From positions 129,236 to 193,235 of the forward strand of contig JADKCG010000001.1 in NCBI GenBank assembly GCA_016714745.1: a stretch of 64,000 nucleotides of DNA, in the 5' to 3' direction. Every line of letters begins with the position of its first letter. Positions within the stretch are counted from its first letter, which is position 1. This DNA comes from Elusimicrobiota bacterium. Lineage in GTDB: Bacteria > Elusimicrobiota > Elusimicrobia > FEN-1173. Made by a program: the position numbers and the translations under genes. Shown piece after piece: positions 36,209 to 50,370 of this stretch. A model generated the notes under the pieces. The model ran no database searches. It was not told the origin of the DNA and saw only the letters and a list, made by a program, of their open reading frames with translations.

Positions 36209-37894
36209 ATGAAAGATTCCGTCCGCGCCGTTTTATCTTCCGCCGCCCACCGCTGGGCGGCCCAGCAAACCCCTCCGCTGGTTTTGGGGGAAGCCCTCGT
36301 GGAGGTGCCCCCCGCGAACGTGGCTGGCGATTTCGCCTCGACGTGGCCCCTTTCTCTCGCCAAGGCAGTCCGAAAAGCCCCGCGCCAAGTGGCCCAAGAG
36401 ATCCTCTCTTTTGTGGAAAACGGTTCTGTTTTAGCGAAAGCAGAGATGGCCGGTCCTGGTTTTTTAAACTTTACCATGAGCACGGCGTGGTTGATGGAAG
36501 AACTTCGGCGTCTTCTTCTTGAACGGGGAGATTACGCGAAACGTGTCGGCTTGACCGGCGAGAAGGTCTTGATTGAATTCGTTTCCGCCAACCCCAACGG
36601 CCCTTTGCATGTGGGTCATGGGCGAGGTGCGGCGTTGGGCGATTCTCTGGCGCGGATCTTTCGCCATCTCGGATATAACGTGACCACGGAGTATTACATC
36701 AATAATGTGGGCAACCAAATGGAAAACTTGGGCGCCTCGGTGATGTGGCGGGCGGACGTGTTGGATTCCACCTATTTGAGCGAGGAAGAGCGTAGCGTGT
36801 ATAAGGCCAAAAAGGTTGACGACCTATATAAAGGCGAGTATTTGGTGGACACGGCCCGCGACATCATGCGCCGTTTTCCCAAAGACCAAGAGCGCCCCCG
36901 CGGGATCGCTTTTTTTCGCGACGAAAGTTTGGCCTTGATTCTATTAGGGATTAAAAGTGACTTGGGCGCGTTCGGCGTTTTCCACGATACGTGGTATCCC
37001 GAATCCCGCCTTTTTGAAGAGGGGCGTGTGGACGCGGCTCTGGCGGAACTGAAGCGCCGGGGGGATTTGAAGCAGGAGGACGGTGCCTTGTGGTTCCTGT
37101 CGACGAAATACGGGGACGACAAGGATCGTGTGTTGAAACGGGGAGACGAACGCCTTACCTATTTCGCATCGGACATCGCCTACCACCATGAAAAGTTTGG
37201 ACGGGGGTTCACCCGCCTGATTGATATTTGGGGAACGGACCACCACGGTTACGTTCCGAGAGTGAAAGCCGCCGTCCAAGCGTTGGGTCATGATCCGGAA
37301 AAGTTAACGATCCTTCTTTATCAGCTGGTCAGTCTGGTTCGGGGGGGGAAACCCGTGGCCATGTCCACCCGTACCGGAGAGTTCGTGCGACTGACGGAGG
37401 TGGTCGACGAAGTCGGCAAAGACGCGGCGCGATTTTTCTTTGCTCTGCGAAGCCCGAACAGTCAATTGGAGTTCGATTTGGATCTGGCCAAACGCGAAGC
37501 CTCCGACAATCCCGTTTTTTACGTGAAATATGTCCACGCTCGTTGTTGTTCCATTTTCCGAGAAGCTGAGAAACGCGGCGTCGGCCATCCCCTCCCCAAC
37601 ACCGCCGCTTTTTCCTCTCCGGAGACGTTCGACCCCGCCGAACGGGCGATCCTCCTGCGCTTGGCGTCGTTCCCTGACGTTTTGGATCAGTGTGCCAAAG
37701 ACCTCACGCCGCACCATATGACCGACTATTTGCTTAAACTCGCGGGGGACTTTCACCGCTTCTATGAAAATTGTTCCGTCCTCAACGCAACGGAGGCTCA
37801 ACGCCCTTTCCGCACCGCCCTTGTCGACGGTGTCCGCACCACCATCAAAAACGGTCTCTCCCTCCTGGGCGTCGACGCTCCTGAAACAATGTAG
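36209..37894 (+). CDS. argS: arginine--tRNA ligase
   Basis: SANPNGPLHVGHGRGAALGD HIGH motif and a C-terminal DALR anticodon-binding domain. 561 aa. AGGAG RBS. Confidence 0.9.
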   Translation: MKDSVRAVLSSAAHRWAAQQTPPLVLGEALVEVPPANVAGDFASTWPLSLAKAVRKAPRQVAQEILSFVENGSVLAKAEMAGPGFLNFTMSTAWLMEELRRLLLERGDYAKRVGLTGEKVLIEFVSANPNGPLHVGHGRGAALGDSLARIFRHLGYNVTTEYYINNVGNQMENLGASVMWRADVLDSTYLSEEERSVYKAKKVDDLYKGEYLVDTARDIMRRFPKDQERPRGIAFFRDESLALILLGIKSDLGAFGVFHDTWYPESRLFEEGRVDAALAELKRRGDLKQEDGALWFLSTKYGDDKDRVLKRGDERLTYFASDIAYHHEKFGRGFTRLIDIWGTDHHGYVPRVKAAVQALGHDPEKLTILLYQLVSLVRGGKPVAMSTRTGEFVRLTEVVDEVGKDAARFFFALRSPNSQLEFDLDLAKREASDNPVFYVKYVHARCCSIFREAEKRGVGHPLPNTAAFSSPETFDPAERAILLRLASFPDVLDQCAKDLTPHHMTDYLLKLAGDFHRFYENCSVLNATEAQRPFRTALVDGVRTTIKNGLSLLGVDAPETM

Positions 37895-37979
37895 GGAGCT
37901 TCAAATTTTCGAAGAGTTTCATGTAACATTCCTTTGGATTTCCTCTTTCCCAAAAGGATATAAAAAACCAACATTCCCC

Positions 37980-38008
37980 TTGATTATTTATTGAATTGGG
38001 GGTAAATA
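37980..38008 (+). promoter_or_regulatory. candidate sigma70 promoter TTGATT-N17-TAAATA upstream of the PilZ gene
   Basis: Read directly from the sequence in the AT-rich 140-bp argS-pilZ spacer. Confidence 0.25.
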
Positions 38009-38032
38009 TAAACAAAGGAAAACCCCGCGGGT

Positions 38033-38587
38033 TTGCCAGAGGGATGTTTTTCCTGGGGAGGAATTACGCCGGTGAAAGAAAAAGTGGTGTCGGGCGGGGA
38101 AACCCAAGAATTTCATTGGAGCATGGAAGGCATTCGCCGCCAGGCAGAACCGGCGGTTCGGTTGAAACCCGCTCCGGCCAGATCGTCCGTTGACGAAGAG
38201 GCGCCCACGGGGGTAGAAAGTCGGCGGTTCCCTCGCATCGATCTCACCTTGCCCATTTTGTACAAGATCCTTCCGGAAGAACCGATGGTCGCTTCTCAGT
38301 CCGCTGCGCCGGACCTGCACAGCAAGGTTGATAATATCAGTCCCACAGGGGCTTGCCTGGTCCTTGCCGAAAAACTTCCCCGAGGAACCAATTTAGCGCT
38401 TTCTTTTCACGTGGCACAAAAGGCCGCCATTTCTGCGGTCGGCCGTGTTGTCTGGGCCAAACCGACCGAAATAGCCCATCATTACCTTACCGGTCTGGAA
38501 TTTGTCGTCGTCTATCGAAAAACCCGAACCAAAACCGAATACCTTTCCACCGACATCCTAAAAGACCTGCTCGGTCCCACAGCCTAA
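38033..38587 (+). CDS. PilZ-domain (c-di-GMP-binding) protein
   Basis: RxxxR-like segment RRFPRIDL and a D/NxSxxG motif (DNISPTGA). The likely start is the GTG at about 38071, after GGGGAGGAA. Confidence 0.55.
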   Translation: MPEGCFSWGGITPVKEKVVSGGETQEFHWSMEGIRRQAEPAVRLKPAPARSSVDEEAPTGVESRRFPRIDLTLPILYKILPEEPMVASQSAAPDLHSKVDNISPTGACLVLAEKLPRGTNLALSFHVAQKAAISAVGRVVWAKPTEIAHHYLTGLEFVVVYRKTRTKTEYLSTDILKDLLGPTA

Positions 38588-38871
38588 CCCGTCCCTCTTT
38601 TGACGCCTGGTGCACCCGACTGGAAATGTATTTCGTCGTTGCTCCATTGAGAGGGCCCCCTTTTTCCAGGACAAGATCATACAACGGACAACCGCCCGAT
38701 AAATCGTTCAACCCGGACTTTGCAATAGGCGCGAGCACCGAGATGAAGAAGCCGGCGGCTTTTTCGACGAAAAACGCGAACGCGTGGCGGTGTCTACGGT
38801 TGAGCGTTTTGAGGAAAAAGCAGTCCCGAATTCTTCGTCGAATGCCGTGTCCTATTGCAAAATCCGGGTTT

Positions 38872-38908
38872 AATGTAAACCAATCGACATTGATTCTTGG
38901 TTGACATT
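38872..38908 (+). promoter_or_regulatory. BirA-box-like bio operator (TGTAAACC-N17-GGTTGACA) overlapping a TTGACA -35 element, 50 nt upstream of bioB
   Basis: aaTGTAAACCaatcgacattgattcttGGTTGACAtt. The half-sites match the E. coli bioO arms TTGTAAACC / GGTTTACAA. Confidence 0.45.
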
Positions 38909-38957
38909 GCTCGCGTTCTTTGGTTGAATACCCTCCTTGCATCGACGGAGGAAATCC

Positions 38958-40023
38958 CATGCCCCTGCTTGAAATCCCTGACGCCACTGAAGTGAGTAGA
39001 AAAAGTCTGGCGGGAGAACTGTTGTCCCGCGAAGAAGCGCGAGCGGTGTTGTCCTGGCCGGACGAAGAAATATTGGATCTGATTTCGGCCGCGTATCGAG
39101 TACGCCGAACCCATTTCGGCCGCCGAGTGAAAATGAACTTTCTGGTCAATCTCCAATCCGGTTTATGCGCTGAAGATTGTTCCTATTGTAGCCAATCCAA
39201 AATCTCCAAAGCCCCGGTGGAGAAATACAAATTCCTTTCCTCAGACGAAATATTAGACATGGCCGACCGAGCGGTGAAAGCGGGCGCGGCACGATTGTGT
39301 CTGGTGGCTTCCATGCGGGGGCCTTCGGAGCGGGATGTGGTCTCTTTGAATGAATCTGTTCGGCAAGTCAAAGAGCGTTATCCTCAACTTGAGATCTGTG
39401 CGTCCATGGGTTTGCTTAAGGAGGGTCAAGCGGAACGCTTAAAAGAGGCCGGCGTTGATGCTTACAATCACAATCTGAACACCAGCGAGTCCCATTATGA
39501 AAAAATCTGTCATACCCACACCTACAAAGATCGGGTGGATACCGTGGAACGGGCCAAAGAGGCCTCCCTTTCTCCCTGCTCCGGGGCTATTTTCGGAATG
39601 GGGGAAACCACGGAAGACATTATTGACGTGGCCTTCCGATTGCGGGAGACCGGGGTGGACTCCATTCCCATTAACTTTCTGATTCCCGTGCCGGGGACAG
39701 CTCTGCAGGGGAAAAATGATCTGACTCCCAACCAGTGTCTCAAAATCCTATGTCTCTTTCGGTTCATCAATCCCGCCATGGAACTTCGCATTGCCGGAGG
39801 GAGAGAGCTTCATTTGCGGTCCCTTCAGACGCTGGGGCTGTACGTGGCGAACTCTATTTTTGTGGGAGATTATCTGACCACCAAGGGACAGTCCGCCACC
39901 GCTGATCGCCAAATGGTGCACGACATGGGATTTGAGGTGGTGGGCGATCCTGCCCGGTCCGAGGGCCCCCCCGTTTCCCTCGCCGAGGGTGTCGAGATCG
40001 TTACCCGCGCCACGCGGCAGTGA
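38958..40023 (+). CDS. bioB: biotin synthase (radical SAM)
   Basis: CAEDCSYCSQ radical-SAM cluster motif. GGAGG sits 8 nt before the ATG at 38958. Confidence 0.9.
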
Positions 40024-40751
40024 TCTTGAGCAAGGTCGTTTTGATAACGGGGGCCAGCCGCGGCATTGGTCGAGCGTTGGCGCTTGATTTGGGGCGCGCG
40101 GGGTATTGCGTTGGGGTTAATTATCGCAGTCGACGGGCGGAGGCGGAATCGGTTGTGGCTGAGTTGCGCAATGGTGGGGCAGAGGCCGATCATTTTCCTG
40201 CCGATGTGTCCGATCCCCTTCAGGCCAAGGACCTGGTGGACGGCGTTGTTCGGAAATGGGGGAAAATCGACGGGCTGATCAACAACGCGGGGGTGACGCG
40301 GGACCGGAGCATTGGAAAAATGTCCCTGGAAGAGTGGCGCGACGTGATCGACACGAACCTCTCTGGCCCCTTCTATTGTCTTCAATCCGCTTCACATCAC
40401 ATGCGCCGTCAAAAAAGCGGTTTTATTATTAACATCGCTTCTATACTGGGGGTCCATGGGGCCGTGGGCTGTGCCAACTATGTGGCGGCCAAGGCCGGTT
40501 TGATCGGATTAACAAAAGCCGCGGCACGTGAGTTGGGACGGTACAATATTTGTGTGAACGCTGTGCTCCCGGGGTTCCATCCCACTGAAATGTCGGAAAA
40601 AATTCCTCCCGAACAAAATGCCCGCGTACTCGCTCAGCATTCGCTTGGCCGGTCCACCGACATCAAGGACCTTTCCCGGTTCGTAATGAATTTGACCGAT
40701 TTGTCCACGGTTTCTGGCCAGGTCTTTAACGTGGATTCCCGGATTTTGTGA
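40020..40751 (+). CDS. FabG-like 3-oxoacyl-ACP reductase paralog embedded in the bio operon
   Basis: [17 protein letters not shown], and [18 protein letters not shown] (the YxxxK motif). The GTGA overlap with bioB means it is co-translated with the biotin genes. Confidence 0.75.
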
Positions 40752-41887
40752 ACAACGAAAAAAGGCGTGTTGTTATAACGGGCATCGGTCTCGTCTGCCC
40801 CCTGGGCGCGGACCGAGAAACCAGTTGGCGTTCTCTCATCAGCGGCCATTCAGGGGCATTGGCCCCCAATGGGGTCTTTGCCCCGAATGGGGCCTTCGCC
40901 CCGAATGGGGCCTTCGCCCCGGTGCCGGAGGGTCCAGGTCCCAGGACTCTCATCTTGGCTCTGCGGGCGGCGGAAGAAGCATGGAACGATTCAGGATTGG
41001 GCGATGTGGATCCAGAGCGAGTGTCTTGCACCGTCAGTTCCAGCAAGCCCGTGTTGGGAAAGGACGATCCCTGGACGTGCCAGCCGCCCGAAATTATTTC
41101 AGCCGCCGTGGCTCGAGGACATAACGCGCAGGGCGCCGTGATGAATATCGCTTCCGCCTGTGCCACAGGGGCTCAGTCTCTTTTAACGGCGGCGGGCTGG
41201 ATCGAAGAAGGGCGGACAGACGTGGTTTTGGCGGGAGCGGCGGAGAGCGCCCTGCATCCACTCTATTTGGCAGGGTTCCGCCAGTTGGGTGTTCTTTCAA
41301 AAAGAGGGGTGGTCAGGCCTTTTGATCGTGGCCGAGACGGGTTTGTAGTGGGGGAAGGCGCCGCGGTGTTCGTGCTGGAATCCCTGGCGGGGGCGAACGC
41401 GCGGGGCGCCAAAATTTATGGCGAAGTGTTGGGGGGGAACTTCTCGTCGGACGCCCATCACGCCACACGGTTCAATTCTAACGGACGAACCATGGCGGCC
41501 TGTCTGCAAAAAGCCTTGAGTCAGGCCGGTTTGACTTCGAACGACCTGGATTACGTGAACGCCCACGGCACCGCCACCGTTTTAAACGACAGGCTGGAAA
41601 CCCAAGCCCTGTTGTCACTATTTCCAAAGAACCCGCCCCCCGTTTCGTCCACCAAGGGAGCCACGGGCCATCTGTTGGGAGCCACCGGCGCGGTTGAAAT
41701 CGCATTCAGTCTCTTGGCCATGAGAGATGGGCTGTTGCCTCCGACGCTGAACATGGAAAACCCCGAAACCGACCGTCTTGATTTTGTTCCGAACCATTCG
41801 CGCTCGGCTCCACTTGACCGCGTGGCATCTTTGTCTTTTGGGTTCGGTGGAACCCTCGCGGCGGTTGTTCTGGGAAAACCCACATGA
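40748..41887 (+). CDS. FabF/FabB-type 3-oxoacyl-ACP synthase (KAS I/II) paralog embedded in the bio operon; carries an internal tandem repeat
   Basis: Active-site Cys ([12 protein letters not shown]), His ([11 protein letters not shown]) and His ([13 protein letters not shown]). Start and stop overlap the SDR and bioF (GTGA and ATGA). Confidence 0.75.
40862..40915 (+). repeat. three tandem 18-bp units (GCCCCGAATGGGGCCTTC-like) inside the KAS gene, encoding [18 protein letters not shown]
   Basis: The second and third units are identical; the first differs at 3 positions. Confidence 0.8.
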
Positions 41888-43152
41888 TTTTTTCTCCACT
41901 GGATCATCGGCTTACCGCCGGATTGGCCGGGCTCGAATCCGAACACCGCCGCCGACGTCCGCGTACAGTGCAGACCATTCCCTCTGCGCACACCCGCGTT
42001 GCGGGTCGGGAAATCCTAAACTTTGCCTCTAATAATTATTTGGGTTTGGCCGAAGATTCACGCGTGTGTCGCGCCGCCGCCGAGGCCGCACACCTATGGG
42101 GCGCGGGGGCCACGGGGTCCCGGTTGATGGGAGGAACCTTGGCGTTCCACGAAGAATTGGAAACCGCCCTGGCAAAACTTAAAGAACGAGAATCCGCCTT
42201 GGTGTTTCCTTCTGGTTATCACGCGAATCTGGGTATGATCCCCGCCCTCGCGGGTCCCGACGATACACTTTTCCTCGATCGTTTGGCTCACGCCTCTTTG
42301 GTGGACGGTGCCCGTTTGTCCAAGGCCCGGGTGAGAATTTTTCGACACAACGATCCGGACGATCTGAACCGCGCGCTGTGCCGTGTCTCTGGGAACGGGG
42401 AGCGGTGGGTGATAACGGAAAGCGTTTTCTCCATGGACGGCGACCGGGCGCCGCTGAAAGATCTGGTCTCGGTTTGCCAAAAGCGGAGCGCTCGGCTTTA
42501 TGTGGACGAAGCTCATGGTACAGGAGTGTGGGGTTCTGGGGGCCGCGGCTGGGTGAACGAGCAAGGCGTGGCCGATCAGGTGGATGTTTGTATGGGGACA
42601 TTGTCAAAGGCGTTCGGTGCCCAAGGCGGGTTCGTTTGTGGTTCTTCCATGTTAACCCAGTGGGCCATCAACCGGGCCCGGGCTTTTATTTATTCAACCG
42701 CGCTGTCGCCGTCCGCCGTGGGCGCGTCGTTGGCGGCGCTCAAAATCATGCAAGAGGAGCCAGACCGGAGATCCCGACTGTTCGGCCTTTCTGCCCAGTT
42801 ATGGGCCGGTCTCAATCTTAAAGGGGAAGGCCCCATCGTCCCCCTCACCGTCGGTGAAGATACCCAAGCCTTGTCCCTTTCCTCCGCTCTTTGGGAAGCA
42901 GGTATCTTCGCCCCCGCCGTCAGGTTCCCCACGGTTCCCAAGGGCGCCGCCCGCGTCCGTTTTTCCGTAACAGCCAACCATGCCGCCGAAGACATCGACC
43001 GGGTTCTTTGGGCCGTCGGAAAATGGGGCCGTCTCAACGGGAACACCCACATTGAGAATAAATCTTCTCCCTCTCCCGCATCAGCGCCCCTGGCGCCCCA
43101 GGTGCCCATCGCTCTGCGATGGGCCGCTGGCGGGAGAGATTCGGTTTTATGA
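41884..43152 (+). CDS. bioF: 8-amino-7-oxononanoate synthase
   Basis: PLP-dependent alpha-oxoamine synthase signature including the GTLSKAFG lysine motif. Confidence 0.85.
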
Positions 43153-43838
43153 CGCCCTCTCTTTTCATCACCGCGACAGACACAGAAGTCGGAAAAACAT
43201 TTATCGCTTGCCTGTTGGCCGAAGTGATTCGTGCCTCAGGGAAAACCGTCGGCGTCTTGAAACCCTTTTCCGCTGGGGACCTCGATGACGCCACCCGACT
43301 GCAACGTGCCGCTGGGGGGCAAGGGACTCCACACCAAGCCACACTTTTGTATTGTCCATTCCCCGTGACGCCGGCCGCTCAGTTGGGGTTGGGATCCCCT
43401 GGCGAAAAGATCGTTAAAAAAACCTTTAAAGAATCTGTTTCTGCGGTTAAAGAGTTACAAAAGAAGCGTGACTGTGTTTTGGTGGAAGGATTGGGCGGCG
43501 TTTTGGCTCCCTTGGGGGGGCGTTTTTTTGTGACAGACCTGATGGCCACACTCAATCTTCCTATTTGGGTTGTCGCCCGCGCGGGTTTGGGAACAATCAA
43601 CCATACGTTGTTGACCGTAGAAGCCCTGACACGGAGGGGGCTGACACCCCGCCGAATTCTTTTGAATAATTATAAAGGTCGGGATTTGTCGGAACGAACG
43701 AATGCCAAAATTATTAAACGATTGACAGGACTCCCTGTCACAGAAGTTCCCTGTACTTCCACCCGCGCCACAGAACAGAAGGTCAAACGATTGTTGTGGG
43801 ACGCGTTTGTGGCGGATTTTTATTTCCATGAAAAATAG
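43149..43838 (+). CDS. bioD: dethiobiotin synthetase
   Basis: ITATDTEVGKT P-loop. ATGA overlap with bioF. Confidence 0.85.
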   Translation: MTPSLFITATDTEVGKTFIACLLAEVIRASGKTVGVLKPFSAGDLDDATRLQRAAGGQGTPHQATLLYCPFPVTPAAQLGLGSPGEKIVKKTFKESVSAVKELQKKRDCVLVEGLGGVLAPLGGRFFVTDLMATLNLPIWVVARAGLGTINHTLLTVEALTRRGLTPRRILLNNYKGRDLSERTNAKIIKRLTGLPVTEVPCTSTRATEQKVKRLLWDAFVADFYFHEK

Positions 43839-43899
43839 ACGCCAAAGCAAGGGGGCTCCACCCCCTCCTACCCCGGCCAGGCGCTCCGCCCTGGACCCG

Positions 43900-43935
43900 G
43901 CTGACTTTTCTTTGGACCCGCAAAGAAAAGTCAGC
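43900..43935. other. perfect 15-bp inverted repeat (GCTGACTTTTCTTTG-gacccg-CAAAGAAAAGTCAGC) in the bioD-bioA spacer
   Basis: Both arms are exactly reverse-complementary. They are flanked by a duplicated GGACCCG. Confidence 0.75.
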
Positions 43936-44229
43936 AAAAGAAACGGGCCCCGTCGGGCCGCTCCCACGCGGCACTTCCGCTATCGCGGTCGCCATGCGCG
44001 CGATTTTGTGCCGGAGGCTGACCCACCTCCCGCATCAGCGGCTCTGCCGCCCCAGGTGTCGAGAGCTCTGCGAGCGGCCGGCCCTAAGAAGCCTACGGGC
44101 CGGATCGGACAGGGTCAGCCCCGCTATCGGCACAAAACCGTGCTCGAATCGCCTCAATGGGGAATCAAAGGGCCAAACCAAAAGATTCACCAAAAAGGAT
44201 CAATTCCAAAACAAGAATCACCGAACAAC

Positions 44230-45618
44230 CCGATTGCCGCTCTCGACAAAAAATTCCTTTGGCACCCTTTCACACAGCAGTCGGAATGGGAAAAAGGCGA
44301 CCCGATTGTGATTCGCTCTGCCCGCGGGTCAACGTTCACGGATACCCGGGGCCGAACTTACATTGACGGCGTTTCTTCTCTCTGGGTGACGGCTCACGGA
44401 CATCGCCACCCGGCCCTAGACCGTGCGGTCCGACGCCAACTGGCCCGCATGGCACACACCACATTCCTTGGCTTAACGCACGAACCGGCGGCGCGATTGG
44501 GCCAGGCGCTCGTGGACATCGCTCCGTCGGGCTTATCGCGGGTATTTTATTCAGACAACGGTGCCACCTCCGTTGAAGTGGCGCTCAAGATGGCGTTCCA
44601 ATATTGGGCCCATCGAAGCGAACACCGGGCGGAGTATCTCGCTCTAGAAGGGTCGTATCATGGCGATACCCTGGGCGCCGTCTCTGTGGGAGGCATCGCC
44701 GCCTTTCACAAAACCTTTCGCCCGCTTTTGTTCAAGGCCCATTTCGCTCCCGCGCCCCATTGTTATCGATGTCCCTTTCGCAAAAAGTCCCCACAACCCG
44801 AACTGAGAAGTGGGGACGAACCAACCAACGTCCGCGCTCCGCGACCAGGGGACAAACGAGAGGAAACCGGTTGTCGGTGGGAATGTCTGAGGGGGGCGGA
44901 AAAATTAATAAAAGCGAGAAGGAAACGGTTGGCGGCGGCCATTTTGGAACCCATCGTCCAAGGAGCATCAGGCATGCGGGTGATGCCCCGGGGTTATCTA
45001 AAAGGTTTTGAGCGGCTCTGCCGCCAATACGGGATTCTCTTGGTTGCCGACGAGGTGGCCACCGGGTTCGGTCGAACGGGCCGGATGTTCGCCGTGGAAC
45101 AGGAGGGCGTTCGCCCAGATTTCCTTTGTGTGGCCAAAGCGCTCACCGGCGGCTATCTCCCCTTGGCCGCCACACTCACGACACAAAAGATCTATCGAAC
45201 ATTCCTGGGTCGTTACGAAGATTTTAAGGCTTTCTTTCACGGGCACAGTTATACCGCCAATCCCTTGGCCTGCGCCGTGGCGCTGGAAAACCTAAAGGTA
45301 TTTAAGAGGGAAAAGACCTTAGAACGTCTCGCCGAAAAACGCCAATGGATGACCGACTATTTAAAACAGATCGCCGACCATCCCAACGTGGGCCAGGTCC
45401 GCCAAGCGGGTTTCATGGGGGGCATTGAACTGGTCGCCGACAAAACCACCCACCGCCCCTTCCCCGCCGCCGCGCGAAGGGGCGCCCAGTTCTGCCGCCA
45501 AGCGTTGCAAAAAGGCGCCTGGCTTCGCCCTCTCGGCGATGTGATCGTCCTCATGCCCCCGCTTGGAATATCCCAAAAAGACTGGACCTCCCTCATCGCC
45601 GCCCTGGGACTCACCTAA
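44230..45618 (+). CDS. bioA: adenosylmethionine-8-amino-7-oxononanoate aminotransferase (start unresolved; long ORF reads through a roughly 400-bp low-information spacer)
   Basis: FLWHPFTQQ…SSLWVTAHGH…DEVATGFGRTG class-III aminotransferase motifs. The listed 603-aa ORF starts at 43807. The first 140 residues are Pro/Arg-rich and unlike any BioA N-terminus. An A7 run at about 44250 may hide a frameshift from the 44157 ORF. Confidence 0.75.
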   Translation, partial: PIAALDKKFLWHPFTQQSEWEKGDPIVIRSARGSTFTDTRGRTYIDGVSSLWVTAHGHRHPALDRAVRRQLARMAHTTFLGLTHEPAARLGQALVDIAPSGLSRVFYSDNGATSVEVALKMAFQYWAHRSEHRAEYLALEGSYHGDTLGAVSVGGIAAFHKTFRPLLFKAHFAPAPHCYRCPFRKKSPQPELRSGDEPTNVRAPRPGDKREETGCRWECLRGAEKLIKARRKRLAAAILEPIVQGASGMRVMPRGYLKGFERLCRQYGILLVADEVATGFGRTGRMFAVEQEGVRPDFLCVAKALTGGYLPLAATLTTQKIYRTFLGRYEDFKAFFHGHSYTANPLACAVALENLKVFKREKTLERLAEKRQWMTDYLKQIADHPNVGQVRQAGFMGGIELVADKTTHRPFPAAARRGAQFCRQALQKGAWLRPLGDVIVLMPPLGISQKDWTSLIAALGLT

Positions 45619-45864
45619 AATCATCCCAGCGGTAACGTGTCATAGCACTCTATGTCCGTGCGAAAAACAAGATGAAATAACGCTGACATATTACGCCGTA
45701 ATGTGTCGGGATGTTTATCAAGACCTGACCCCTTCCCCCCCATCCTCCGCTAAGGAGTATTTCCTCGTCTACCAGGCTTCCGTTATTGGGTGAAATCGAG
45801 AATTTGTAGCGCGGGCATCCGATCGCGCTATCGGAAGTGCCGCGTGGAGAGGCCTGCCCGGCCG

Positions 45865-46137
45865 GTCATTAACCCGGAACTTTCAGTTGGCGTAGGGCTA
45901 CCGTCGAGAGGGTCCGGAACAAAATTTCCCAACCCTCCCGGACGGAAATGTGCCGCCAGCTGAAAATTCTAGGTTAACCCGAAAAGTTCAGTTGGATCTC
46001 GGGATTCGTCGAAGGATGCCGGATTTTTTCTTCCTCAAAAAACATGACCAAAGTCACCGCTATGGCCTGCGGTTTCTTCGTCGAAAAAGCCGTGGCCTCC
46101 TTCGCCTCGGTCCCCGCGCCCAACTGAACTTTCCGGG
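45865..46137. repeat. three copies (two direct, one inverted) of a 20-bp motif AACCCGGAA(A/C)(G/T)TTCAGTTGG in the non-coding region 3' of the large minus-strand gene
   Basis: Copy 1 ends at 45891 (…ttaacccggaactttcagttgg). Copy 2 ends at 45994 (…ttaacccgaaaagttcagttgg). Copy 3, inverted, is at about 46118-46137 (ccaactgaactttccgggtg). Confidence 0.65.
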
Positions 46138-46249
46138 TGAAATAATTTCTTGATCATGCTCCATAAATCTTCAACATTTATGGATCTTTATCCAGTGGTC
46201 GCTTATTTTTTCGGTTAATAAATAATGTTTTTTTCCGTCTCTCGAGCTT

Positions 46250-49200
46250 CTATGCCGCTCTGAGGGCGGCGAGAAGAGCCTGGATCTCTTTGTTTATGGA
46301 ATTAGCAATCCTTTCAAAATATTGTCCCTTGTATTTCTTGTTTTCTCCGATAAAGTTTTTTGCCCCTTCCTGAACTAAAACAATGGCGGAAAGGGGAATG
46401 TCGTTGTTATTGTTTCGTTCGACCTCATTTATGGTGGTATAAACGTTGGCATTAATGTAAGTCTTGACCAAGACTTCCTGGTCATGTGTAACACCCACCT
46501 GCCGTAGAATTTCCGCTGGGGTACTTACTTCGGACACGATCAAAACGGGCTGATTTTCACCCAGCATTCCGGCGAGAACGGCCTGGGCGGTGGCTTTTAT
46601 ATTTTCGGGCCAATTGTGAAACCCCAAAAAGTTCATTGTGATTCGAGTGTGTGGTCCGTTGGTTTCACCCAATAATCTCCCGAAGTTTTTGGCGGCCCTA
46701 TTTGTTGCATTCTGGTCCTCAAGATCGGAAATTGCGGTCTTCATATCGGCTTGGGCAATTCCCTTAAATATATTGGGAGTAAACTTCTCGGCCGGTCTGA
46801 TTTGGTCTGGTATTCGTAAGAGGGGGTCACCGGTGATTAAATTCAAAACGGCTTCCCGAACGAGTTGTTGCTGGATGGGGGGGGGTGTTTGACTATTCTG
46901 GACAACAGGAGCAGGAGTCTGAGCGGACGCCATTCTGATCGCCAGCCTTTTTACCTCGGAAACAAAAGGGGTTTTTTTATTGAAGAGTTGTTGTCTGTCA
47001 TAAGCGAAATGGTCATAAGCGAAAACAGAAAATGCAAGCGCAAATAAAGCGGGGCTGGCGACCAAGAAGGGAAGGAACGCGTAAATCATCATTCGAGCCG
47101 TGTTAGACCAAAATCGGTTTTCCGGCGGGCTCAGACCCGGGTGTTTACCACCCCAAATTTTGTCCAACGCCAAGTGAAGGAATCTGAACGCCAAAATTCC
47201 CGCACCCATCAATAACGCCCCCATCATGGTCGGATCAAGGGCCAACATCCCATTCATCAACGGTTGAGCCCACCCCTGGGCGAACCATCCCGCCGCTCCC
47301 AAACCCATGATTTCAAGCGGGAGCAACCGCATGCCCCATCGCACCGCCGTCTCCGTCCCCATCCATGGGCGCAACAGGTGAAAGAAAATGTTGTTGGCGG
47401 AGGAAGGGTGTCGACTGGCTAAATATGCTTGAAAGGAATTGCCGTATTCATCATCTCCTTCAGAATAATAGGGCCCGCCCAAATGACGAAGGGTAAGACC
47501 GCCCAAGCCTTTTCTGGCCGAACGAAAAAAATCATTTTCATTAACGACCAACGTTGAATTATCAGCTAAATTTTCAGACACTTGCCCGATTATTTTTGGG
47601 AGAGAGTTAGGCAGGGGATATTGGGCCTTTAGATATAGACCGTCAAATTCAGTGCTCCCAAATCGGAGCGGGGGCCATCGATTCGAATGTTCGTCGGGGC
47701 CGAGGGTGGCTGGGACAAAAAAAATCTCAGTGCTGATTTCTCCCTGGGGCCCCGCCCGTTTAAAACGCAATCCTTTCCCATCCTCCGTTGGGGTGACGGA
47801 CTCCGGGCAACCTTCAAAGAAACCAATTCGAGAGCGATCAGGCTGGGTTCAAAACGAAGGTCATTAAATGTCCAGTAATTGGCATAGCCATGAGTCAGGA
47901 CCGATAAAGAGTAATCCTCGGTGATTAATTGTAAATTAGGATTAACCATTTCGCGCCGTATGGCATCGACGTCCAATCGTTTATTGTAAAAAAGGCCCAC
48001 CATTGTCACGGAAGTCGCCAAAGGGAAGGTGGTCAACACATTGGTTAAGTCGTATCCCGCCGCGAGATAAAGGACATTCGAGACAGTTTGGGTATGCTGA
48101 GATATGGCGTGGTTTCTGGCGGTGCGCTCCCCAGTCAACAAAAGTGAGGTCGGACGAAAAGCTGTTTTTAGAAAGGTGTTTGTTGCCCCGGCCTTAGAAA
48201 GAGTTAACGGGCTCCACAAGGCAAACAAGGTCAGAGTCCCCATCCATTGCCAAGCTAAGTTTGCACCGCTCCCTTCAAGCAGAAGGATGTCACTGAGGAG
48301 AAAAGTCCAAGGATAAGTCAGGCCGAGATCTAAACCCAGCCCTGGCTCCAGGAAGAAAGTCAGAGGCGCCAGAATAGGAACCGCGATTTTGTTCTTGAAA
48401 TCTTTAAGTAATTTCCCCCCCCAAAGGGTTTTTGGCGAAAGTCCTTGTTTAATCAGGTAGAACTTTTTTTTTCCTAACTCCAATAAGAGGATCAAAGTCG
48501 AAGGATCTCTAGGGTGTGCCCGGGATATTTTTACGGTGGAACTCACCGGGGATTCGCCCGCTCCCTGGGATACGGTGATTGCCGCATGCGCAATTCGGGC
48601 AGGATCTGATTCGGAGTCGGACAACCGAACCCGGCCTGCCAAATAAATCCGATCGCCAGCAAGAAGTTGTTCGATTGGGACGGGGTCGCGGGCGAGAACG
48701 TCGATATACTTATTGTCTTTAGGGATCGCGGTGATTTTGGGAGTGACAACAACATACGAGATTTGCTTTTCTCGCAAAAGGGCCGTCAATCCTTCCGTGT
48801 GGAACCCCCCGGCAACCAAAATGCCGGAACGCGTTTTGTCTTCGGCCATTCGCCGGGTCAGGTTATCGGTGAAAGCGGTGTTTCGCTCCGACGCCAGGCG
48901 GCAAAAATCTTCGAACGGGGTCAGGGAAATATTATTGGAAGGGTCCAAGGGTGCCGTCGTTGTAGGAGTCAAACGCGCCAATCGTTCGGTCGCGGTCCGC
49001 AATGTGTCTCCCCGGGATAGGTAATGGGACCAATCCGAGGGGCTCATTTCGTGTCGGACAAGTTTGTGAAGTAAAGAAAGATCGTATGTGATGGACACCA
49101 ACTCTTTTTCCAGGGAAGTTTTGGCCAAGAATTGGGGCAGGGTCCTCTCAACGGTGTCCAGCTCGTTCAGCAGGCCGTGATGGTCAATTTTGTCGGCGAT

Positions 49201-50370
49201 GATCACGTAGTCGATGTAGCGCTCCATTTGGGGATAGTCTTTGATCGAGATCCCGTTGAAACGGCAGACCCGTTTTAAATGGGTGTGGTATTCGACATGT
49301 CCCACCCGTCCGGAACGGTATTCGACACTTTTTTCCATCATTTCCGAAAGCCGGTCGGGGGAAAGTTTGTTCACCAACTTTTCCACCATTTGTCGGCGTT
49401 CGGTTTCGACCTGATTAAAGTCGATGGCTTTTTCCTGGTCTAGAGCCTGCTCTAACAGCTGAAGGTTGGGGGGTACCGAGCGACCTTTCGTTTGCATTAA
49501 AGCGCCGGTCAAATACCGCACATAGTCGACCAATTTGACCTTTTTGAATTGGTATCCCAAAAAGTTTTGGTCAAATGTTTTAAGGGGTTCTGAATACTCC
49601 AATTCCTTTAATTTGTCGGTCGTTGCTTTAAGCCTGTCCACCCAGACCATTGCGGCGTCCCGATCTTTGTAGGCTGTTTTCAATGCCTGCACGTTGGCGT
49701 TGTAAAGACCGCTGGATTCCACTCCGAAAAAGGTAGGCGCTTTGGGCATGGTCAACCCGGCGTACTCGGGACCGGCGATCATGTCCTTTTTCAAAAGAAA
49801 TTCAGCGAGGTCTTTGGTCATGGCGGGATTGGGAAAGTCCCGGTAGGCGTCTACCGAGAACGGTCCCCAGGCTCCTTCCACGCCGACCAGGGTGATGCCG
49901 GGGTCTTGGCCCAGCAGGGAAATCATGGACGAAATGTTACGTTGGGCCTCTTCAATGCCGTGGGCGTCCTGAATTTGGACAACGAAAGGGGCGTCTTTTA
50001 TGGGGGACAGGTAAGTATCATTGACCGTGCCGAAAGGGCTTACCAGTTTCCCAATCCAGTTGCCCGCTTTCGGGCCGATGGCGAACGGTTCCTTTAAATC
50101 GGCGGGCGCAGAAAAGGGTTTGGATCCTCCGCTGATTTCAACCGCCGAAGGGCGGGGCATGTTGGCCAAAACCGTTTGACTGTCGGTGTGGACGAGCGCG
50201 TCAGCGATGGGGGAGATGCCCCCCATTCGTTCCGCGGAAGCGCGCCGCCGTTGCGCCCAAAAGCTTGTTTCAGCCGAATGGGCCACTACGACGTTAACGA
50301 CAAAATAGAAACCGGCCAAACCGGCCGCTAATGTGCGTGGGATTTTGCCCTTGTTTTTTGGATTTTTCAC
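46250..50370 (-). CDS. large (about 1370 aa) hypothetical membrane protein in a low-GC island; one frameshift near 47650-47770
   Basis: ORFs 47629..50370 and 46250..47770 overlap by 140 nt in different frames. Signal/TM-like N-terminus and several C-terminal TM helices. GC is visibly lower (about 45-50%) than the roughly 60% of the flanks. Confidence 0.5.

Follow-up and report, generated by a model that had tools for sequence, protein, structure and literature searches.

Bacteria are known to make the pimelate moiety of biotin through BioC/BioH, BioI/BioW, BioZ and, since 2025, BioE. In Desulfovibrio, fatty acid synthase (FAS)-like genes were predicted to belong to bio operons in 2004 (PMC545781), and in 2023 the bio-cluster homologs of FabF, FabG, acyl carrier protein (ACP) and FabZ were found by random-barcode transposon sequencing (RB-TnSeq) to be needed for growth without biotin, with bioC and bioH absent (PMC10102598). 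The cluster, DVU2558–DVU2565, encodes a FabF-like protein, a FabG-like protein, a dedicated ACP and two FabZ-like proteins, with the nitroreductase DVU1220 in addition, and clusters of this kind have been reported only in Desulfobacterota and Chrysiogenetes (PMC10102598). Here, we analysed a 64,000-nucleotide (nt) stretch of an Elusimicrobiota genome (contig JADKCG010000001.1, positions 129,236 to 193,235; hereafter the window, to which coordinates refer) that carries a biotin operon with a FabG-like short-chain dehydrogenase/reductase (SDR) and a FabF-like β-ketoacyl synthase (KAS) encoded between bioB and bioF. We consider it likely that the two enzymes form a dedicated, biotin-regulated module that makes a pimeloyl (C7 dicarboxylate) thioester for BioF with its ω-carboxyl group unmasked.

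The window locus resembles the Desulfovibrio cluster in having FabF- and FabG-like genes between bio genes, in its predicted regulation by BirA and in lacking bioC, bioH and bioW (here, within the window); for both, pimeloyl-ACP is proposed to be built without methyl esters by a biochemistry that is undefined. The original prediction, made from the DNA sequence alone, mentioned such paralogs in bio loci of some deltaproteobacteria and knew of no defined mechanism for them, in agreement with the published work (PMC545781, PMC10102598), in which the Desulfovibrio cluster is genetically required but biochemically undefined. The differences are substantial. Desulfovibrio has five extra genes, whereas our locus has two; neither the window nor any related locus encodes an ACP, a hot-dog dehydratase or a nitroreductase. 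Elusimicrobiota is not among the taxa listed for Desulfovibrio-type clusters (PMC10102598). No Desulfovibrio-named protein appears among the best 120 matches of each KAS or SDR homologue search, and the single Desulfobacteraceae-named match carries a FabF-type gate.

A second point of comparison is BioZ, which is likewise a dedicated condensing enzyme encoded in bio loci. Its reaction joins an ω-carboxy primer, glutaryl, to malonyl-ACP and yields 3-oxopimeloyl-ACP, which makes bioC and bioH dispensable. BioZ is a FabH homolog (KAS III-type, from alpha-proteobacteria) of about 330 amino acids (aa) with a Cys-His-Asn triad; it takes a coenzyme A (CoA) primer, whose carboxylate is held by Ser84 and Ser287. 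The window KAS, in contrast, is of the KAS I/II type, has a Lys gate and its own reductase, and contains neither PF08545 nor PF08541, although the signature of its pocket is compatible with a BioZ-type condensation of glutaryl with malonyl-ACP. A third comparison is with AmcF/Cfa3, the type II polyketide synthase-like ketosynthases (KSs) of cispentacin and coronafacic acid synthesis, which are also short FabF-like proteins (about 369 aa). The corresponding model, NF058662, aligns with the window KAS over its full length and scores 229.9 bits, under the cut-off of 325. The starter of AmcF is a C5 dicarboxyl-ACP whose carboxylate is free, and the enzyme extends it by one C2 unit only (PMC10698177). 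The window locus differs in having no AmcG/Cfa4 partner, adenylating loader or dedicated ACP, and in its biotin rather than natural-product context; the listing of open reading frames (ORFs) shows no second KS-like gene there. Our reading of the literature on DVU2563, on biotin in Elusimicrobia and on new pimelate pathways found no description of a two-gene module or of the Lys-108 signature discussed below.

The biotin operon and its conserved gene order

Six genes follow one another on the plus strand, as identified from the ORF listing and from Pfam and NCBIfam scans. The biotin synthase gene bioB (38959–40023; Radical_SAM and BATS domains; TIGR00433, 400.8 bits against a cut-off of 225) is followed by the biotin-linked FabG-like SDR ketoreductase (40020–40751; 243 aa; adh_short, 193.8 bits) and the KAS, a biotin-linked condensing enzyme of the KAS I/II type in which Lys occupies the 'back gate' (40748–41887; 379 aa; PF00109 and PF02801). 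Next come bioF (41884–43152), which encodes an 8-amino-7-oxononanoate synthase with a C-terminal extension and scores marginally under the TIGR00858 cut-off (424.8 against 426.45 bits), the dethiobiotin synthase gene bioD (43149–43838; TIGR00347, 116.7 bits against 83.3) and bioA (43828–45618), encoding the S-adenosylmethionine-dependent 8-amino-7-oxononanoate transaminase (TIGR00508, 534 bits against 405).

The genes are tightly interlocked. Stop and start codons overlap as GTGA at bioB/SDR (40020–40023) and SDR/KAS (40748–40751) and as ATGA at KAS/bioF (41884–41887) and bioF/bioD (43149–43152), so that all four junctions at which the original prediction had seen such overlaps can be read directly from the sequence. 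Its range of 38958–45618 ends correctly at the bioA stop codon, but the bioB ATG lies at 38959; similarly, the five genes that it named are chained as it proposed, but bioA, which falls within the range, was left unnamed and is chained as well, by an ATG at 43828 that gives an 11-nt overlap with the bioD stop codon, as it does in the related locus L002 (collected loci are designated by L and a number). The SDR may start at GTG 40020 or at TTG 40026; for the 100% identical protein P0368, encoded on a 217-kb contig of an Elusimicrobia metagenome-assembled genome at NCBI, the gene call starts at TTG 40026, 3 nt past the bioB stop codon. An exact look-up of the window KAS, by contrast, gave no recorded protein.

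Upstream of the unit, 86 nt 5′ of bioB, lies a BirA-type operator-like palindrome, TGTAAACC-N17-GGTTGACA (38874–38906, plus strand). Its right half overlaps the −35 box of a putative promoter read from the sequence (38901–38929, plus strand; −35 TTGACA at 38901–38906, a 17-nt spacer and −10 TTGAAT at 38924–38929), and a Shine–Dalgarno sequence, GGAGGA, stands ahead of bioB at 38947–38952. The promoter layout of L002 matches, with TTGACA-N17-TTAAAT. A search of 1.54 Mb of DNA (the window and the collected loci) with the pattern TGT[AC]AACC-N14-19-GGTT[GT]ACA gave five matches: four lie 5′ of bioB, in the window, L001, L002 and L011, and the fifth is the Escherichia coli bioA/bioB operator (L009:1767), a positive control. 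The pattern did not occur in 200 shuffles of the window sequence, and variants with a shorter spacer are present 5′ of bioB in L005, L006, L098 and L026. Because the operator stands ahead of the whole unit, the SDR and KAS genes are probably under BirA control together with the rest.

The order of the genes is conserved far beyond this genome. Tracing KAS homologs to their contigs and inspecting the neighbouring genes over 10 kb to either side, as far as the contig reached, we found that about 13 other independent loci, from Elusimicrobiota or metagenomes, share the order bioB–SDR–KAS(–bioF), at KAS identities down to 38%. The arrangement bioB–SDR–KAS(–bioF–bioD–bioA) is kept in L001/2, L003/4, L005, L006, L007, L011, L012, L019, L026, L094 and L098. 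KAS identity to the window protein is 72% in L001 and L002, 71% in L011, 55% in L012, 48% in L007 (Endomicrobiales), 44–47% in L003–L006 and 38–39% in L019 and L026; L094 is a more distant locus that still shows the bioB–SDR–KAS order. Recurring in so many independent loci, the arrangement is not due to chance. By comparison, bio genes were found within 10 kb of none of 59 sampled FabF-type loci, many of which are fabD–fabG–acpP–fabF clusters, and of none of 17 cyanobacterial loci encoding a related short KAS. The FabF-type loci come from a genome scan with the KAS that gave at least 600 matches; among the matches listed are four Elusimicrobia loci, the rest being FabFs and cyanobacterial short KASs, with no Desulfovibrio locus. 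Translational coupling, the upstream operator and synteny maintained to 38% KAS identity together support the view, already taken in the original prediction, that the two fatty-acid-type genes belong to the biotin transcription and translation unit.

Some loci depart from this order in detail. L001, from an Elusimicrobia metagenome-assembled genome (MAG; GCA_016721625.1), shares with the window a flanking order of nucleotidyltransferase, HD, LytR, two T2SSE ATPase, cNMP/GAF, RsfS, ArgS and PilZ genes and then bio. Its bioB and SDR genes are fragmented in the NCBI MAG contig (L001:8230–10004) and intact in L002:300–2077, a Logan contig that encodes an identical KAS beside the same neighbour genes, and the breaks in L001 are likely to be assembly errors. 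In L093, the KAS gene lies two genes 5′ of bioF–bioD and the SDR is replaced by an unrelated, weakly Rossmann-like protein, a 331-aa product encoded after the KAS (L093:11288–12283; L095:11156–11482 belongs to the same branch) for which Pfam, at E values up to 1, detects a weak Rossmann-type N terminus alone. This protein of the divergent L093/L095 branch may be a non-homologous replacement of the reductase. The same branch has a conserved coiled-coil-like protein of about 410 aa ahead of the bio-linked KAS, and Pfam at the same threshold gave nothing else notable for neighbours of unknown function in L093, L095, L007 and L097.

Active sites and acyl pockets of the two enzymes

The KAS retains the fold and the catalytic set of FabF. 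Its AlphaFold2 model has a predicted local distance difference test (pLDDT) score of 90.3 and, by Foldseek, a template modelling (TM) score of 0.90 to FabF structures; the closest solved structures to the KAS and the SDR are FabF and FabG, respectively. Cys138, His273 and His308 align with FabF Cys163, His303 and His340, which bears out the intact Cys-His-His triad first noticed in the sequence, and FabF Lys335 and Phe400 are kept as K303 and F366. Even so, the protein scores only 313.2 bits against the FabF model TIGR03150, for which the cut-off is 493.75.

What sets the family apart is the end of the acyl pocket. At the position of FabF Ile108, Lys is found in 83/83 family members (Lys100 in the window KAS), and the surrounding FabF motif G-S-G-I108-G-G is replaced by S-x-S-K-P or S-x-S-K-G (S-S-S-K-P in the window). 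FabF Gly198 is replaced by Tyr in 71 of the 83 (Tyr173 in the window KAS) and Pro272 by Phe, and Phe202 is kept. Three segments of FabF are deleted: residues 124–136, a loop that contains the ACP-docking Arg127/Lys128 and a Pro-Phe-Phe segment, residues 56–67, which include Lys65, and residues 212–216. As a review of elongating ketosynthases describes for E. coli FabF, I108 and F202 form a back gate at about C7–C8 of the bound chain, the substitution I108F halts elongation past C8, and a glutaryl methyl ester bound to the catalytic cysteine has a length of about C7 (PMC9006962); Ile108 and Gly198 are thought to direct the acyl tail (PMC4606726). Lys and Tyr at positions 108 and 198, with Phe202 kept, thus predict a short pocket with a cation and a hydrogen-bond donor at its end, where the free ω-carboxylate of a glutaryl-enzyme intermediate would lie. 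Judged by these substitutions, the hydrophobic acyl pocket that long chains require is lost.

The SDR shows a similar combination of conserved catalysis and altered substrate site. In an alignment with 11 FabGs, it keeps the Asn-Ser-Tyr-Lys tetrad and the TGxxxGIG NADPH motif, but its score against the FabG model TIGR01830 is 230.6 bits, under the cut-off of 297.75. FabG Ile184, in the PGFxxT substrate loop, is His in 119 of 120 family members, and the C-terminal G-G of FabG is S-R in the bio-linked SDRs, with Arg in 120/120 at position 240, where FabG has Gly. Both added basic residues are near the substrate site and fit an anionic substrate. Against the same FabGs, two residues are deleted and Asn145 and Gln148 are not conserved, and the ACP-docking Arg129 of FabG is mostly Lys. 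A second, unrelated SDR (338 aa, with an N-terminal extension) is encoded at 500–1516 on the minus strand of the window, unlinked to the bio genes.

Phylogeny of the KAS, a check that the original prediction had proposed, places the bio-linked enzymes apart from FabFs of fab clusters. In a neighbour-joining (NJ) tree of 77 sequences, bio-linked KASs and cyanobacterial short KASs form one clade (bootstrap 96/100), and this Lys/Arg-108 clade excludes the fab-cluster FabFs. Among those excluded is the FabF of L096, an Elusimicrobia MAG with a canonical rpmF–plsX–fabH–fabD–fabG–acpP–fabF cluster and the FabF motif G-S-G-I-G-G, which means that the phylum possesses ordinary fatty acid synthesis of type II (FAS II). 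Clustering with housekeeping copies, which in combination with canonical bioC/bioH or bioW elsewhere in the genome had been named as telling against the idea, was seen neither for the KAS in the tree nor for the KAS and SDR in their scores, which are both under the equivalog cut-offs. The two proteins share fold and catalytic residues with housekeeping FabF and FabG but differ from them in gate residues, deletions, sub-cut-off scores and gene context, the KAS gene lying between the SDR gene and bioF and not in a fab cluster. These sequence comparisons lead us to conclude that the SDR and KAS of the biotin operon are not housekeeping FabG and FabF.

The cyanobacterial short KASs (Nostoc, Anabaena, Calothrix and others; about 370–395 aa) carry Arg at the position of FabF Ile108 and have several deletions in common with the bio-linked KASs with which they group. 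They are encoded in L015–L018, L022, L023, L025, L028, L033, L035, L037, L038, L054, L059, L065, L082 and L086, and seem to resemble NCBIfam NF004618, against which the window KAS scores 296 bits; their function appears to be undescribed. When the KAS alignment was run as a profile against 1.84 billion representative proteins, the best 150 matches were giant multi-KS polyketide synthases, whose scores accumulate across domains, and no estimate of family size was obtained.

Proposed pimelate route and competing explanations

None of the known pimelate genes is present in the window. A Pfam scan of about 60 candidate ORFs of the window (non-overlapping, at least about 75 aa, minus a few of the shortest) detected no BioC-type methyltransferase, α/β-hydrolase esterase (bioH/G/J/K/V) or BioW, no P450 (BioI) or KAS III (BioZ), and no PP-binding ACP, FabA/FabZ hot-dog protein or nitroreductase. 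This agrees with the original prediction both on the absence of bioC, bioH, bioW, bioI and bioZ from the window and on the lack of adjacent ACP and dehydratase partners. Searches by phmmer with E. coli BioC and BioH found no match beside any bio-linked KAS, and in the bio-linked loci nothing matched E. coli AcpP or FabZ either. For the Endomicrobiaceae, a comparative genome study of 2024 reported that bioFADB is present and described the route to pimelate as unclear and unlike any established pathway (PMC11257099).

In the scheme that we propose, the KAS combines the FabF fold and a Cys-His-His triad with an acyl pocket that is shortened and closed by a cationic and polar gate (Lys for Ile108, Tyr for Gly198), and would load an ω-carboxy acyl primer onto its cysteine and condense it with malonyl-ACP; the best-fitting step would be glutaryl to 3-oxopimeloyl. 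The SDR would reduce the 3-oxo-ω-carboxyacyl thioester with NADPH, and the housekeeping FAS II (FabZ, enoyl reductase and ACP) would supply dehydration, enoyl reduction and the carrier protein in each round; as a precedent, E. coli FAS II reportedly completes the 3-oxopimeloyl-ACP made by BioZ. BioF would then take the pimeloyl thioester, and BioF, BioA, BioD and BioB would finish biotin. Which substrates are used, how many rounds are run, whether ACP or CoA is the carrier and what individual residues do are inferred from sequence. The synteny, the operator, the sub-cut-off scores and the basic and polar pocket substitutions all favour what was suggested at the outset, that the pimeloyl moiety is made by a dedicated condensing-enzyme and ketoreductase pair. 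Within this scheme, we also favour the KAS for the earlier round, malonyl to 3-oxoglutaryl, in which case pimeloyl-ACP would come from three malonyl units; we put the chance of this additional role at somewhat below even. The more specific proposal, that a cationic-gate KAS primes on malonyl-ACP without decarboxylation and, with the reductase and the host FAS II, builds free-carboxylate pimeloyl-ACP from three malonyls, is offered more tentatively still.

Several observations weigh against this scheme. The locus encodes no dedicated ACP, dehydratase or enoyl reductase, so that the scheme depends on housekeeping FabZ and FabI/K/L/V for the turnover of short C5 intermediates with a free carboxylate; acceptance of such intermediates is shown for C7 only. 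The distance of Lys108 appears right for a C5 primer and not obviously for a C3 primer. ACP-docking residues are lost from both enzymes, Lys65 and Arg127/Lys128 of FabF from the KAS and Arg172 of FabG from the SDR, the bio-linked SDRs having Phe, Tyr, Leu, Met, Lys or Ser in its place; given these losses, CoA could be the carrier, or the enzymes could dock in another way. Finally, a Lys-108 KAS of the cultured planctomycete Gimesia panareensis is not bio-linked (L097:10001–11287, CP036317.1). It has 428 aa and the motif G-S-S-K-G-G, and its gene adjoins hisS and small genes of unknown function.

The competing explanation that survives best is a single round with BioZ-like logic, in which the KAS would only condense glutaryl-CoA or glutaryl-ACP with malonyl-ACP to 3-oxopimeloyl-ACP and the SDR would reduce the C7 keto group only. 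It is possible, although we think it unlikely, and differs from our preferred scheme solely in drawing its C5 primer from catabolism (lysine, 2-oxoadipate or glutarate). The Lys at the FabF-108 gate, at about C7–C8, matches the carboxylate of a glutaryl chain; BioZ uses lysine-derived glutaryl-CoA, and AmcF extends its C5 dicarboxyl-ACP starter by one C2 unit. In L098 and L026, moreover, which represent one Elusimicrobia subclade, the operon runs on into a lysine-catabolism-like gene set: after bioB–DUF423–SDR–KAS–bioF–bioD come directly, without a change of strand, genes for a saccharopine dehydrogenase, an aldehyde dehydrogenase and an HglS-family (PF07063) protein (L098:13318–17089, L026:13217–16901). 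The set is conserved at about 60% identity and might supply a dicarboxylate primer of C5 or C6. However, catabolic genes of this kind are absent from the neighbourhood of the window operon and of most other loci, the cluster contains no CoA-transferase or ligase, and KAS I/II enzymes normally use ACP rather than CoA primers. HglS-type enzymes yield 2-hydroxyglutarate and not glutaryl-CoA, which also counts against a one-round route. A dedicated reductase is harder to explain under it, because housekeeping FabG suffices in BioZ organisms.

Alternatively, the pair could assist a BioC/BioH-type route encoded elsewhere, as isozymes for malonyl- and glutaryl-ACP methyl esters. FabF position 108 is also where the ester group of glutaryl-ACP methyl ester would sit, but the invariant Lys and the Tyr at the end of the pocket and the His and Arg of the SDR suit an anion better than a neutral ester. 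Moreover, E. coli housekeeping FabF/B and FabG already process methyl esters, none of about 14 loci has a methyltransferase or esterase linked to the module, as inspected over 10 kb to either side or as far as the contig reached, and Endomicrobiaceae genomes lack the established routes (PMC11257099). We judge a methyl-ester role to be very improbable. That the genes are ordinary or lipid FAS paralogs with no biotin role, placed here by historical accident or by co-regulation with biotin-dependent acetyl-CoA carboxylase, would accord with the intact catalytic residues and FabF and FabG folds of both proteins and with the Lys-108 and Arg-108 relatives of Gimesia and cyanobacteria outside bio loci, but it is hardly credible in view of synteny kept to 38% identity, stop/start overlaps between bioB and bioF, an operator that precedes the entire unit, the presence of a distinct housekeeping fab cluster in the phylum and the loss of the hydrophobic acyl pocket for long chains.

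Surrounding sequence and significance for biotin synthesis

Other features of the operon bear on its gene products rather than on the pimelate step. Within the KAS gene, an 18-bp tandem repeat of 3.8 copies (40853–40921, plus strand) encodes APNG[AV]F hexapeptide repeats, and residues 39–52 of this segment are disordered in the model (pLDDT below 50). The repeat is missing from the homolog P0008, and P0001, which is 97% identical to the window protein, is 12 aa shorter. An in-frame insertion of about 390 nt follows the first codons of bioA (43839–44225, plus strand); it is Arg/Pro-rich, has nested inverted repeats and contains a perfect 15-nt hairpin at 43900–43935. The corresponding residues, about 130 in number, are missing from the BioA proteins of L002, L006, L007, L019 and E. 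coli, and the conserved BioA sequence starts near 44225. By a rough estimate, an open frame of about 130 codons would arise by chance at this GC content with a probability of about 0.01 or less. The region between bioD and bioA was also considered as an intergenic spacer or terminator, which was rejected in favour of an in-frame insertion past the ancestral bioA start, itself overlapping bioD.

Pieces of the insertion, within which 44027–44080 lies, recur at 43073–43126 (the 3′ end of bioF; 83% identity over 54 nt) and, on the minus strand, at 45810–45854 just downstream of bioA. The C-terminal extension of the window BioF coincides with the repeat at 43073–43126, and a copy is also found at the bioF 3′ end of L001/L002. 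The element looks like a small dispersed repeat at gene junctions, similar to repetitive extragenic palindromes (REPs) or miniature inverted-repeat transposable elements (MITEs). Comparison of the bioA insertion with plasmids gave no match, and an Rfam search of 37800–46300 gave chance-level matches only. Farther downstream, the segment 46000–50400 has a GC content of 0.48–0.51 against about 0.57 and contains two large minus-strand ORFs (46250–47770 and 47629–50370) without a Pfam match. L001 has a MazE/PIN pair in its place, and the segment is probably a strain-specific insertion.

No part of bacterial biotin synthesis varies more, or is less complete, than the making of the pimelate moiety, and the Elusimicrobiota locus presents the smallest version yet, with two genes and no private ACP or dehydratase. 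If our reading is correct, the Lys gate of the KAS and the His and Arg of the SDR would explain how a charged dicarboxylate is accepted without methyl-ester masking, and the module would close the gap in pimelate synthesis that is acknowledged for the Endomicrobiaceae and other Elusimicrobiota. The signature would let annotators call the pathway from sequence and would provide parts for biotin or pimelate engineering. Were pimeloyl-ACP built from three malonyl units, this would be a minimal methyl-ester-free pimelate pathway. The Arg-gate cyanobacterial sister clade, although its genes lie apart from bio genes, might have the same function as the bio-linked KAS; if it does, the route would be widespread and has so far gone unrecognised.

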